Shown: positions 1,170 to 33,988 of the stretch, in pieces
How the letters are laid out: every line of letters begins with the position of its first letter
How positions within the stretch are numbered: position 1 is the first letter of the stretch
DNA from: Escherichia coli
GTDB taxonomy: Bacteria > Pseudomonadota > Gammaproteobacteria > Enterobacterales > Enterobacteriaceae
NCBI RefSeq assembly: GCF_048403405.1
Contig: NZ_CP183129.1
Length of the DNA stretch: 64,000 nucleotides
Strand: one strand, 5' to 3'
Translations under genes and position numbers: made by a program
The notes under the pieces: model-generated
The model's input: the letters and a program-made list of their open reading frames with translations, nothing else
Told to the model about the DNA's origin: nothing
Database searches by the model: none

Positions 1170-1817
1170 TTATTCGGTAATGGCAGGGTTACGAAGCGTG
1201 GGACACAGGAGATACATCTCCAGTAAGATGGCGACGTAATCGCGGGCTTCTTTTTTAAGATCAAAAGATTGCGGGGCAAAGAGCCAGTTTTCCATCAGGC
1301 CGGAAATATAGCCGCGCATAATAATTGCTGCCCGACGCGTCATTAAATCCGCAGGCAACATTTTCGCTTCAATACAATGTTTTAACGTTTGTTCTATACG
1401 GTCATAACTTTCCAGACAGAGATTACGTTGTGCCTGTTGCACAACAGCCATTTCTCCGACAAATTCGCATTTGTGGAATATAATCTCCATCAATAATCGA
1501 CGCCGTTCTTCTGTCACCGTGGATTCAAGAACATGAATTAATATCTCTCTTAATACTGAGAGTGGATCGCCAGGGAATTTTGCCTGATACTCAAGCTCTA
1601 GTTCACCAATATTGGATTCTGACAGTTCCCAGATCTCACTGAACAAATCCGACTTGTCTTTAAAATGCCAGTAGATTGCACCGCGCGTAACGCCAGCTGC
1701 TTTTGCAATCTCGCCCAGCGAGGTGGATGATACCCCCTGCTGTGAGAAAAGACGTAGAGCCACATCGAGGATGTGTTGGCGCATTTCTTGCGCTTCTTGT
1801 TTGGTTTTTCGTGCCAT
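1170..1817 (-). CDS. acrR: TetR-family repressor AcrR
   Basis: 215-aa [27 protein letters not shown]...; divergent from acrAB. Confidence 0.97.
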
Positions 1818-7659: not shown

Positions 7660-8211
7660 ATGAGCACAGAAAAAGAAAAGATGATTGCTGGTGAGTTGTA
7701 TCGCTCGGCAGATGAGACGTTATCTCGCGATCGCCTGCGCGCTCGTCAGCTTATTCACCGATACAATCATTCCCTGGCGGAAGAGCACACATTACGCCAG
7801 CAAATTCTCGCTGATGTATTCGGTCAGGTGACAGAGGCTTATATTGAGCCAACGTTTCGCTGTGATTATGGCTATAACATTTTTCTCGGCAATAATTTTT
7901 TCGCCAACTTCGATTGCGTGATGCTTGATGTCTGCCCTATTCGCATCGGTGATAACTGTATGTTGGCACCAGGCGTTCATATCTACACGGCAACACATCC
8001 CATCGACCCTGTAGCACGTAATAGCGGTGCTGAACTGGGGAAACCCGTCACCATCGGTAATAACGTCTGGATTGGCGGACGCGCGGTCATTAACCCTGGT
8101 GTGACCATTGGTGATAACGTCGTGGTAGCCTCAGGTGCAGTTGTCACAAAAGATGTCCCGGACAACGTTGTCGTGGGCGGTAATCCAGCCAGAATCATTA
8201 AAAAATTGTAA
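7660..8211 (+). CDS. maa: maltose O-acetyltransferase (hexapeptide-repeat acyltransferase)
   Basis: 183-aa [24 protein letters not shown]... with left-handed beta-helix repeats. Confidence 0.93.
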
Positions 8212-13324: not shown

Positions 13325-14611
13325 TTACGCGTTATAGGCATTCTCGCCGTGGCTGTTGACGTCCAGCCCTTCTCGCTCCTGTTCTTCAGGCACACGCAGA
13401 CCAACCGTCAGATCCGCCAGTTTGTAGCCAATAAACGCCACCACACCGGACCAGACAATCGTAATGGCAATGCTTTCCAGCTGTACCAGCAACTGATGGC
13501 CCATCGTCACACCTTCAGCGAAGCCCACGCCGCCCAGCGAGCTGGCGGCAAAAATCCCGGTCATGATACAGCCGACAATGCCACAAACGCCGTGCACACC
13601 AAAGACATCGCAGGGATCATCCACCCGCAGCAAGCGTTTGAGCATGGTAACGCCCCACAAGCCCGCTAGACCCGCTACCACGCCGATAATCAACGCGCCG
13701 CCAACACCAATGTAGCCACAGGCTGGCGTCACGCCGACCAGACCGGCAATCGCGCCAGAACACGCTCCCAGCAGTGAAGGCTTTCCGCGCAGCGCCCATT
13801 CACCGAAGATCCAGCCAAGAATTGCTGCCGCCGTTGCGACCACAGTATTCACAAATGCCAGTGCCGCGATTTCATTCGCCGTGCCCGCTGACCCGGCGTT
13901 AAAGCCAAACCAACCGATATAGAGAATGGCAGTCCCGGTGAAGACCATCGGCAGGTTGTGCGGTTTAAACGCCTCTTTACCGAAGCCCACGCGTTTGCCT
14001 ATCAGATATGCGCCCACCAGACCGGCGATTGCGGCGTTAATGTGCACCACCGTGCCACCCGCGAAATCCAGCGCACCGTGAGAAGCCAGCAAACCACCGC
14101 CCCACACCATATGCGCAATCGGAATGTAGGAGAGCGTCAGCCATACCACCACGAAAATCAACACAGCTGAGAAGCGGATTCGTTCCGCCAGCGCCCCAAC
14201 TATCAAGCCTACGGTAATGCAGGCAAACGATCCCTGAAACGCTACGTGGATATACTGATAAATGCTGCCCATCACCGCCGTCAGTTCGATGTTTTTCAGC
14301 ATCAGCCAGTTAATGTTGCCGAAGAAGTTGTTGCCCTCACCAAACGCCAGCGAGTAACCGTAAACCACCCAGAGAATACAGACCAGTGCAAACGTCACCG
14401 TCACCTGCGTCAGCATCGACAGCACGTTTTTGCCGCGAATCAACCCACCGTAAAACAGGGCAATCCCCGGAATAGTCATAAACAGCACCAGCGCAGTACA
14501 GATCATCATAAACGCATTGTCGGCTTTATCGGCCACCGCAGGTGCAGCCATTACCAGTCCCGGCAGCATCGCCAGTGAAGCAAGCCCAGTTTTTATCGTC
14601 GCTATCTTCAT
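13325..14611 (-). CDS. amtB: ammonium transporter AmtB
   Basis: 428-aa ORF MKIATIKTGLASLAMLPGLVMAAPAVADKADNAFMMICTALVLFMTIPG... Confidence 0.97.
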   Translation of the reverse strand: MKIATIKTGLASLAMLPGLVMAAPAVADKADNAFMMICTALVLFMTIPGIALFYGGLIRGKNVLSMLTQVTVTFALVCILWVVYGYSLAFGEGNNFFGNINWLMLKNIELTAVMGSIYQYIHVAFQGSFACITVGLIVGALAERIRFSAVLIFVVVWLTLSYIPIAHMVWGGGLLASHGALDFAGGTVVHINAAIAGLVGAYLIGKRVGFGKEAFKPHNLPMVFTGTAILYIGWFGFNAGSAGTANEIAALAFVNTVVATAAAILGWIFGEWALRGKPSLLGACSGAIAGLVGVTPACGYIGVGGALIIGVVAGLAGLWGVTMLKRLLRVDDPCDVFGVHGVCGIVGCIMTGIFAASSLGGVGFAEGVTMGHQLLVQLESIAITIVWSGVVAFIGYKLADLTVGLRVPEEQEREGLDVNSHGENAYNA

Positions 14612-14640
14612 TTTTCGTTCCTGTTGCTGTGTGCCAGAGA

Positions 14641-14979
14641 TTACAGCGCCGCTTCGTCGGCTTCGCCGGTACGAATACGAATGACGCGTTGCAATTCAGC
14701 GACGAAGATTTTGCCGTCGCCAATTTTTCCGGTGTAAGCCGCCTTACTGACGATATCGATCACTTCATCGAGTTGGTCATCAGCAATCGCCACATCAATT
14801 TTTACTTTTGGCAGGAAGTTGACGCTGTATTCCGCTCCCCGGTACAGCTCGGCATGCCCTTTCTGACGCCCGAAACCTTTCACTTCGGTGACGGTCAGGC
14901 CCTGAATACCAATGGAAGATAACGCTTCACGAACGTCTTCCAGCTTGAATGGTTTGATTATCACGGTCACCAGCTTCAT
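14641..14979 (-). CDS. glnK: PII nitrogen regulatory protein GlnK
   Basis: 112 aa MKLVTVIIKPFKLEDVREALSSIGIQGLTVTEVKGFGRQKGH... from internal ATG of table ORF 14641..15117. Confidence 0.97.
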   Translation of the reverse strand: MKLVTVIIKPFKLEDVREALSSIGIQGLTVTEVKGFGRQKGHAELYRGAEYSVNFLPKVKIDVAIADDQLDEVIDIVSKAAYTGKIGDGKIFVAELQRVIRIRTGEADEAAL

Positions 14980-15030
14980 AGATCCCCTCCGGTCAGAATT
15001 CGGTAATGGTTCTGCTACACGAAGAAGGTA

Positions 15031-15047
15031 TTGCAAGCGGTGTGCCA
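15031..15047 (-). promoter_or_regulatory. sigma54 (-24/-12) promoter of glnK-amtB
   Basis: Minus strand reads TGGCAC-accgc-TTGCA, a perfect match to the sigma54 consensus, about 50 nt upstream of the glnK ATG. Confidence 0.8.
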
Positions 15048-15100
15048 GAAATGAAAAACGAGAAAGAGAGCAGGAAGTTAAGAAGATTGAAAATGAAAAC

Positions 15101-15117
15101 GCACTATGACAGTGCAC
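15101..15117. promoter_or_regulatory. NtrC-like enhancer palindrome upstream of the glnK promoter
   Basis: GCAC-tatgacagt-GTGC dyad about 55-70 bp upstream of the sigma54 element. Confidence 0.5.
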
Positions 15118-15159
15118 AGTGCGTTACATTTTTGCACCAACGATGAAATATTGCGCTAT

Positions 15160-18706
<3,547 letters not shown>

Positions 18707-30900: not shown

Positions 30901-31145
30901 TTCCGTCTCCTGGATAAAATTGAAAAAACCTGCTGTACCGATTGTAACCTTATGGACGGATTATCAGCTAGTCCCTGTGTTATGGGTACGGCATCACCAT
31001 ATTTCAAGCATAACAATCTTTTGTTGTTACGCTAACACCGAAAGAGGCTTTTCGCACGGTTCCATGCAAAATTCATGACAAAAAAAAGCCCACCACCTGG
31101 CGGTGACGGGCCTTTGTGCGAATTTAGCGCGTTATGCTGCGTAAA

Positions 31146-33409: not shown

Positions 33410-33988
33410 ATGTTCAAAAAAATCCTCTTCCCGTTAGTTGCTCTGTTTATGCTTGCAGGATGCGCAAAACCGCCAACAACTATTGAAGTTTCCCCGACGA
33501 TGACACTGCCACAGCAGGATCCAAGCCTGATGGGCGTCACCGTAAGCATTAATGGTGCCGATCAGCGTACCGATCAGGCGCTGGCAAAAGTCACCCGAGA
33601 TAATCAAATCGTTACCCTGACCGCCTCCCGCGATCTGCGTTTCCTGCTGCAAGAAGTGCTTGAAAAACAGATGACCGCGCGTGGTTACATGGTCGGTCCG
33701 AATGGCCCGGTTAATCTGCAAATCATCGTTAGCCAACTGTATGCTGATGTGTCCCAGGGCAACGTGCGCTATAACATCGCGACCAAAGCGGATATCGCCA
33801 TCATCGCTACCGCGCAGAATGGCAACAAAATGACCAAGAACTATCGTGCCAGCTACAACGTTGAAGGTGCGTTCCAGGCCTCCAACAAAAATATCGCCGA
33901 TGCGGTTAACAGTGTGCTGACCGATACCATCGCTGATATGTCTCAGGACACCAGCATCCACGAATTCATCAAGCAGAACGCGCGTTAA
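33410..33988 (+). CDS. yajG: lipoprotein YajG
   Basis: 192 aa from internal ATG MFKKILFPLVALFMLAGCAKPPTTIEV... with lipobox. Confidence 0.9.
   Translation: MFKKILFPLVALFMLAGCAKPPTTIEVSPTMTLPQQDPSLMGVTVSINGADQRTDQALAKVTRDNQIVTLTASRDLRFLLQEVLEKQMTARGYMVGPNGPVNLQIIVSQLYADVSQGNVRYNIATKADIAIIATAQNGNKMTKNYRASYNVEGAFQASNKNIADAVNSVLTDTIADMSQDTSIHEFIKQNAR

Follow-up and report, generated by a model that had tools for sequence, protein, structure and literature searches.

The 180-nt spacer between mdlB and glnK in this stretch of Escherichia coli DNA (the window, 64,000 nucleotides) almost certainly holds glnKp, the single sigma54-dependent, NtrC-activated promoter of the glnK-amtB operon. The control of glnK-amtB by sigma54 and NtrC is already known, and it is intact and ordinary here; our analysis adds nothing to that control, and its main result is to confirm that the strain carries an intact, nitrogen-regulated glnK-amtB. 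The sole new point is that the palindrome used by the activator resembles a stop signal for mdlB transcription, which is a small addition and not a new type of system.

On the minus strand, mdlA-mdlB is followed by the spacer and then by glnK-amtB, with the following landmarks:

15160..15162, minus strand: mdlB stop codon TGA, the end of the upstream mdlAB ABC-exporter operon, equivalent to the K-12 mdlB end at 472417
14641..14979, minus strand: glnK, encoding a PII-type protein of 112 aa with the exact GLNK_ECOLI sequence; ATG at 14979..14977
13325..14611, minus strand: amtB, encoding an ammonium channel of 428 aa, co-transcribed with glnK

Several complete E. coli genomes match a 1-kb query over this region at 100% identity, and in them the RefSeq annotation likewise gives mdlB, glnK and amtB. 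Compared with K-12 MG1655, the spacer differs at a single base, 15086, where T replaces the A of K-12; this position is in a non-conserved part and outside all of the elements discussed below. Together with the exact GlnK sequence, this result bears out the view, taken in an earlier sequence-only reading of the stretch, that the locus is intact. Of 5426 complete E. coli genomes, 5423 carry the spacer once, and in 4416 its identity is 99% or more. Since the 1-kb stretch with its coding flanks reaches at least 99% identity in only 199 E. coli genomes, the constraint on the spacer is no weaker than that on the flanking genes. No Rfam match was obtained for 14400-15400 at E <= 1. We rejected a 158-aa open reading frame at 14641..15117 as an artefact of ORF listing, in which glnK is extended across the promoter to an upstream in-frame GTG.

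The promoter itself is defined by two features, the second of which is a prediction:

15032..15048, minus strand: sigma54 promoter core cTGGCACaccgcTTGCA, with GG at 15046-15045 (-25/-24) and GC at 15034-15033 (-13/-12)
15021 (+/- 2 nt), minus strand: predicted transcription start, 42 nt upstream of the glnK ATG, by the rule in PMC4591121

The sequence-only reading had placed a sigma54 element, TGGCAC-N5-TTGCA, on the minus strand about 50 nt upstream of glnK, and we found it there as TGGCACACCGCTTGCA at 15047..15032, in the sense orientation, with its 3' end 52 nt from the ATG. It has 0 mismatches to TGGCAC-N5-TTGCW, and its GG and GC dinucleotides are 10 bp apart, as in a -24/-12 promoter. 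The description of the element as consensus-perfect is apt for this core but not for the full motif, which has a mid-range PSSM score of 10.5 in the table of Bonocora et al., against ~6.8 to 13 in the other rows compared (PMC4591121). The pattern occurs once in the 64-kb window; shuffled sequences lead to an expectation of 0.08, with at least one match in 8 of 100 shuffles. The published rule counts 19 bp downstream from the motif centre to the transcription start, which gives 15021 here and hence places GG at -25/-24 and GC at -13/-12. No sigma70-like promoter was found in a scan of 14500-15500.

Published data on the same sequence in K-12 are consistent with this assignment. Bonocora et al. 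reported a sigma54 ChIP-seq peak (OS03) upstream of glnK whose motif, CTGGCACACCGCTTGCA, is a 17-mer identical to that of the window, and their table lists a predicted start 42 bp from glnK and marks the promoter "P", that is, predicted in EcoCyc as of 2015 (PMC4591121). A gSELEX peak for the RpoN holoenzyme likewise lies between mdlB and glnK, with the same 17-mer as the listed motif (Shimada et al., PMC8743547). In Salmonella, a glnKamtB promoter reporter rose from 1.1 Miller units under replete conditions to 1778 under nitrogen limitation, a ~1600-fold, sigma54-dependent increase (PMC3844500). Taken together, the -24/-12 element is genuine and is bound by sigma54 in the identical K-12 sequence, as published ChIP-seq and gSELEX demonstrate.

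Upstream of the promoter, a dyad and a half-site match the NtrC consensus to different degrees:

15100..15116, minus strand: NtrC (NRI) box TGCACTGTCATAGTGCG, 10/14 matches to TGCACCAnnnTGGTGCA; its centre, 15108, lies at -87 from the predicted start
15133..15139, minus strand: TGGTGCA, identical to the right half of the NtrC consensus; only 8/14 matches over the whole 17-mer at 15149..15133

A dyad had been claimed 55-70 bp further upstream of the sigma54 element, and one is indeed present 53-68 nt upstream of the -24 element. Its spacing had to be corrected: the core is GCAC-N7-GTGC, at 15115..15101, and not GCAC-N9-GTGC, which is absent at this site and has its sole match in the window at 8014. 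Since N7 is the canonical internal spacing of the NtrC consensus, quoted as TGCACCAnnnTGGTGCA in PMC8743547, the correction strengthens the NtrC reading. The GCAC-N7-GTGC pattern alone is not significant, with a chance expectation of 1.75 per window. Moreover, a search of the window with the NtrC consensus at up to 3 mismatches missed the 17-mer box and returned 4 matches elsewhere, against 3.85 expected, so consensus matching alone is no proof of an NtrC site. Because the sequence alone is insufficient, the case for the site rests on conservation and on published binding data.

The binding data come from K-12. NtrC ChIP-seq yielded peak 1 at glnK-amtB, and glnK mRNA was "not readily detected" in a glnG deletion (Brown et al., PMC4066584); by gSELEX, NtrC also gave a peak between mdlB and glnK (Shimada et al., PMC8743547). 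The 80-bp ChIP-seq bin (471741-471821 in U00096.2, PMC4066584) covers the promoter and the 5' UTR, not the box, so NtrC occupancy is established for the spacer but not for the 17-mer itself. The position of the box centre at -87 in Escherichia is within the ~80-150 bp range of upstream activating sequences ahead of a sigma54 start. NtrC specific activity is 400-fold higher under starvation, and in a cited model NtrC must exceed a threshold before glnK fires (PMC3870243); the 10/14 box fits the published view that glnK needs more NtrC~P than glnAp2. The earlier identification of the locus as nitrogen-regulated glnK-amtB, that is, as known biology, thus agrees with the K-12-identical elements, with the published sigma54 and NtrC occupancy, with the glnG dependence and with the conservation described below.

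The TGGTGCA half-site, at about -120, is separated from the main box downstream by 33 bp centre to centre (3 helical turns). Across 14 Enterobacteriaceae its mean identity is 0.83; it is kept in Escherichia, Citrobacter, Enterobacter and Klebsiella and is degenerate in Salmonella. Enterobacter and Klebsiella have an additional box that overlaps the mdlB stop and precedes the main one by 62 bp (73 bp in Enterobacter sp. Ag1). Since its left half is degenerate, the E. coli half-site may be a weak second enhancer site. The range first given for the whole element, 15031-15117, does include the sigma54 element, but it misses TGGTGCA at 15139..15133 and cuts short the inverted repeat at 15125..15098 that is described further below.

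Conservation was assessed on a set of 79 loci from a GlnK scan with one genome per species, supplemented with loci of E. coli variants, Salmonella enterica, S. bongori, K. pneumoniae, C. koseri and E. kobei that were found by exact protein match. The synteny of mdlB and glnK extends from Escherichia through Yersinia, Rahnella and Photorhabdus. The sigma54 motif is in the same place in 23 of 23 distinct Enterobacterales sequences, 59-104 nt upstream of the glnK ATG in all Enterobacterales loci (the 15 initial ones and all of those added), and an NtrC-type dyad lies upstream of it in every Enterobacterales locus examined. Several relatives have closer matches to the NtrC consensus than E. coli:

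Salmonella enterica: NtrC 17-mer TGCACCGTCATGGTGCA, 13/14
Superficieibacter: NtrC 17-mer TGCACCAGCATGGTGCG, 13/14
Photorhabdus: NtrC 17-mer TGCACTAATCTGGTGCG, 12/14
Yersinia: NtrC 17-mer CGCACTAATTTGGTGCG, 11/14

Outside Escherichia, the box centre lies at -97 to -142 from the predicted start, and at -207 in Orbaceae. In the alignment of 14 Enterobacteriaceae, the columns for TGCAC, GTGC, the first T's 3' of the box, TGGCA, TTGC, GGAGG and ATG do not vary, and both the sigma54 and the NtrC elements can be traced from Escherichia as far as Yersinia, Photorhabdus and Orbaceae. The alignment is a clean phylogenetic footprint of the predicted sigma54 and NtrC elements. The glnK loci of Pseudomonas and other gammaproteobacteria are not syntenic with mdlB, and most of them show either no -24/-12 motif in the 320 nt scanned or one ~200 nt upstream.

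The element is functionally no different from K-12 glnKp: the sigma54 17-mer, NtrC box, 5' UTR and GlnK are the same, and only the E. coli lineage that carries it is a different one. It resembles glnAp2 in having a sigma54 -24/-12 promoter activated by NtrC~P from an upstream 17-bp dyad, with a possible second site about 3 helical turns away, the distance between the two glnAp2 sites, and differs from it in several respects. Whereas glnAp2 has two strong boxes, TGCACCAACATGGTGCT and AGCACTATATTGGTGCA, at -140 and -108 along with low-affinity governor sites, glnK has one weak box (10/14) at -87 and the half-site at about -120. The glnK enhancer is thus nearer to its promoter, and glnK has no overlapping sigma70 promoter. 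In addition, no T-run follows the glnAp2 boxes, which have no upstream co-directional gene that needs termination.

In the glnK spacer, by contrast, a T-run follows the NtrC box, and the box is itself part of a larger inverted repeat:

15098..15125, minus strand: hairpin with arm AACGCACTGTG, loop CACTGT and arm CATAGTGCGTT; 11 bp including one G-U pair; contains the NtrC box
15089..15099, minus strand: T-run TTTTCATTTTC, directly 3' of the hairpin; a candidate U-tract or, alternatively, a DNA-bending tract

The hairpin was flagged by a terminator scan. Its predicted stem-loop energy is ~-14.6 kcal/mol, and the 51-nt context folded as RNA reaches -18.8 kcal/mol (z = -5.5), with 0 of 200 shuffles as stable. 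The left arm, 15125..15117, lies outside the 17-bp NtrC box, while the TGCAC half-site falls in the loop. At 15125..15098 the sequence has the arrangement expected of an intrinsic terminator, namely a stable predicted stem-loop with a U-run directly behind it, downstream of a co-directional stop codon. The structure resembles a canonical Rho-independent terminator in its 11-bp stem, its 6-nt loop, its 8 T in the 10 nt after the hairpin and its location ~35 nt past the mdlB stop; it differs in the moderate GC content of the stem (5 G-C pairs among 11), in a CA that interrupts the U-run, and in that the loop and 3' arm are also a transcription factor site. The dyad had been described as directly abutting the mdlB stop, which is true only loosely, as the box begins 43 nt and the hairpin 34 nt past the stop at 15162..15160. 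That the dyad is also a terminator-like hairpin had escaped the earlier reading.

Across 12 distinct sequences from Escherichia, Citrobacter, Enterobacter, Superficieibacter and "Klebsiella", 92.4% of cells in the stem are paired. One stem pair is changed on both sides, being C-G in 6 and U-A in 5 of these 12 sequences, which represent few independent events. The covariation score of the stem was matched by 4 of 500 shuffles, and the tool flags this score as no probability; given the few independent events and the single covarying pair, the covariation evidence is modest. All 16 Enterobacteriaceae have at least 5 T in the 10 nt that follow the box, versus 4 or fewer in each of the 7 other Enterobacterales with a box, and the strong glnAp2 NtrC boxes of K-12 are not followed by a T-run. 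The NtrC palindrome of Salmonella and K. pneumoniae folds on its own into a stem of 7-8 bp. Two species in which the T-run is weak or absent have a separate hairpin in the spacer, which is GC-rich and just before the -24 element in K. pneumoniae and just after the box in Photorhabdus. No terminator-like site was detected in the spacers of Yersinia and Rahnella. In the supplements of two Term-seq papers we found no mdlB or glnK entry that would place the mdlB 3' end. On the strength of fold and alignment, we give an even chance to the proposal that the NtrC-box palindrome doubles as a candidate intrinsic terminator for mdlAB.

The same features can be explained with the dyad acting solely as an NtrC box, in which case the hairpin would be a by-product, the T-runs would bend or loop the DNA for an unusually close enhancer (-87), and mdlAB would end elsewhere or by Rho. 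We regard this explanation as the main alternative, with a likelihood somewhat below even. Since NtrC boxes are palindromic, some hairpin potential is automatic, and the inner palindrome is paired in 94% of cells with almost no variation. A 9-nt repeat, TTTTCATTT, occurs twice, behind the box and again ahead of the -24 element, at a distance of 42 bp (4 helical turns), with one copy inside the CT-rich spacer at 15049..15088, and the two copies could give phased curvature. The CA interruption of the E. coli U-run and the missing mdlB 3' end in the Term-seq supplements searched point in the same direction. However, the left arm at 15125..15117 is outside the box and yet complementary in the 12 distinct sequences, including the double change from U-A to C-G, and the hairpin is far more stable than its shuffles. 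The distribution of the T-run (present after the box in all 16 Enterobacteriaceae and in none of the 7 other box-keeping Enterobacterales) also argues against a by-product, as do the strong glnAp2 boxes with no T-run behind them and the separate terminator-like hairpins in the spacers of K. pneumoniae and Photorhabdus, where the T-run is weak or absent.

The converse explanation, that the dyad is solely an intrinsic terminator of mdlB and that NtrC binds another part of the spacer, would account for a hairpin and T-run 35 nt past the mdlB stop, for an NtrC consensus match of just 10/14 and for a ChIP bin centred downstream of the box. It is nevertheless very improbable, since TGCAC-N7-GTGCG with the exact NtrC spacing is found in Yersinia, Rahnella, Photorhabdus, Acerihabitans and Orbaceae with no T-run and a stem of 5-7 bp, and the boxes of several relatives reach 12-13/14. 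In addition, the loop sequence, which is the TGCAC half-site, is invariant, although a terminator loop has no need of this, and the spacer contains no better NtrC box. Finally, the motifs could be functionless chance matches in this strain: 1.75 copies of GCAC-N7-GTGC are expected per window, and the sigma54 pattern turns up at least once in some shuffles (8 of 100). The cited data effectively refute this idea, as do the placement and orientation of the motifs relative to glnK, their identity with the experimentally bound K-12 site and their conservation across a bacterial order.

In the best explanation of the locus as glnKp, sigma54-RNA polymerase sits on 15048..15032 as a silent closed complex until, upon nitrogen limitation, NtrC is phosphorylated by NtrB. 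NtrC~P then oligomerises at the box at 15116..15100, possibly assisted by the TGGTGCA half-site three turns upstream, and reaches the polymerase by DNA looping, with ATP hydrolysis opening the promoter. Transcription from an inferred start at ~15021 yields the glnK-amtB mRNA. To this we add, at even odds, that in the mdlAB transcript the palindrome and its upstream arm would form the 11-bp hairpin followed by the U-run, which would end transcription before glnK. A more far-reaching reading, which we rate just short of an even prospect, is that in the Enterobacteriaceae the NtrC box is built into the mdlAB terminator, the DNA being read by NtrC and the RNA hairpin by polymerase, with insulation of glnK-amtB and a possible coupling of the two signals. 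If there is coupling, termination might respond to NtrC on the box, or passing mdlAB transcription might displace NtrC from its enhancer. Should the dual use be real, it would be a small example of two signals in one palindrome.

The remainder of the spacer and the leader of glnK bear on a published insulator that was studied on this very promoter:

15049..15088, minus strand: CT-rich spacer from enhancer to promoter; mean identity 0.49 (14 Enterobacteriaceae), poorly conserved between genera
15021..15028, minus strand: CCTTCTTC, proximal CT-rich anti-Shine-Dalgarno segment, at -7..+1 and centred near -4; transcribed only by upstream read-through
14980..15020, minus strand: glnK 5' UTR, with the strong Shine-Dalgarno (SD) sequence GGAGGGG at 14990..14984 and a highly conserved block, GAATTCTGAC-GGAGGGGATCT

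Levy et al. described an anti-SD insulator with CT-rich flanks and a critical segment at -4, and mutating the 7-nt CT-rich stretch centred at that position relieved insulation (bioRxiv 10.1101/086108). Such insulators are characterised by CT-rich 3-5-mers, located around the start or up to about 25 nt ahead of the SD, that can pair with the SD in read-through RNA. The promoter-proximal part of 15049..15088 is probably within the distal CT-rich flank of their 50-bp glnKp insulator. Their experiments relied on synthetic circuits with a promoter fragment of 50 bp, and the paper mentions neither mdlB nor a terminator (10.1101/086108). That fragment does not reach the hairpin and T-run, which are located farther upstream and would already take effect during transcription. 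A terminator at this position, if confirmed, would be a second layer of insulation beyond the anti-SD segment for an operon that needs silence in nitrogen excess, and together with the published insulator (-7..+1) it would hold glnK-amtB silent in nitrogen plenty. It would also matter to users of glnKp in synthetic biology, whether the part includes the native upstream context or not. In the predicted read-through RNA, whose fold energy is unexceptional (z = 0.58), CCTTCTTC pairs with CCGGAGGGG (SD), while in the predicted sigma54 transcript it is unpaired with the SD.

When the conservation of this locus was examined among 5423 complete E. coli genomes, at least 99% identity across the 1 kb at 14600-15600 was found in only 199, versus 4416 genomes for the 180-nt mdlB-glnK spacer. 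The window derives from a minority E. coli lineage, and the spacer is conserved more strongly than the coding sequence on its flanks. Within this spacer, the NtrC box lies inside an inverted repeat that is followed by a T-run:

15098-15125, minus strand, 11-bp hairpin enclosing the NtrC box, ~35 nt past the mdlB stop
15089-15099, minus strand, T-run 3' of the hairpin

The hairpin and T-run form a terminator-like element that overlaps the enhancer. The T-run after the NtrC box is specific to the Enterobacteriaceae. The left half-site of the box is duplicated in tandem as GCACTGT GCACTGT (15109-15122, minus strand), with the upstream copy of this 7-nt duplication constituting the left arm of the hairpin; in relatives the two copies have diverged (e.g. 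GCACTAT GCACCGT). In addition, a 9-nt direct repeat, TTTTCATTT, occurs on the minus strand directly past the NtrC box (15091-15099) and directly ahead of the -24 element of the glnK promoter (15049-15057). These copies are 42 bp apart and could possibly represent phased T-tracts.

The mechanical ORF list lengthened glnK to 158 aa (14641-15117, minus strand) from an in-frame GTG within the NtrC box and gave mdlB as 631 aa versus the annotated 593 aa. We rejected both ORFs as artefacts, since the listing takes the first start after a stop.

In five glnK loci from Enterobacter spp., K. pneumoniae and E. kobei (L006, L007, L008, L095 and L102), an additional NtrC-like box overlaps the mdlB stop codon (..GCCTGATGCACCA..). 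Its sequence is TGCACCAAAATCAGGCG or a close variant, which matches the consensus at 10-11 of 14 positions. Four of the five loci have it 62 bp upstream of the main box, a distance of six helical turns, and in Enterobacter sp. Ag1 (L008) the distance is 73 bp. E. coli lacks this box because its spacer is shorter. In the K. pneumoniae locus (L095), the NtrC box and the promoter are also separated by a terminator-like, GC-rich hairpin, AAAGGGCCGCTTTGCGGCCTTTT (1100-1122), which sits directly upstream of the -24 element and has the conserved TTTTTCATTTCTGGCA stretch as its U-run. In Citrobacter (L010, L094 and L100), REP-like palindromic insertions such as GCCGGATAAGGCGTTTACGCCGCCATCCGGC, located downstream of the mdlB stop and ahead of the TGGTGCA half-site, lengthen the spacer and leave enhancer and promoter undisturbed.

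Downstream of the promoter, the glnK 5' UTR block CCATTACCGAATTCTGACCGGAGGGGATCT (14981-15008, minus strand), in which GAATTCTGAC-GGAGGGGATCT is almost invariant across Enterobacteriaceae, is conserved in this family far above the enhancer-promoter spacer. This difference hints at constraint beyond the Shine-Dalgarno sequence, such as translation control, an sRNA site or a protein site.

Three other published sigma54 ChIP-seq motifs of Bonocora et al. (PMC4591121) are present in the window:

31065-31081, minus strand, upstream of clpP, exact match
33545-33561, minus strand, within yajG, antisense, exact match
1776-1792, plus strand, within acrR, antisense, one mismatch
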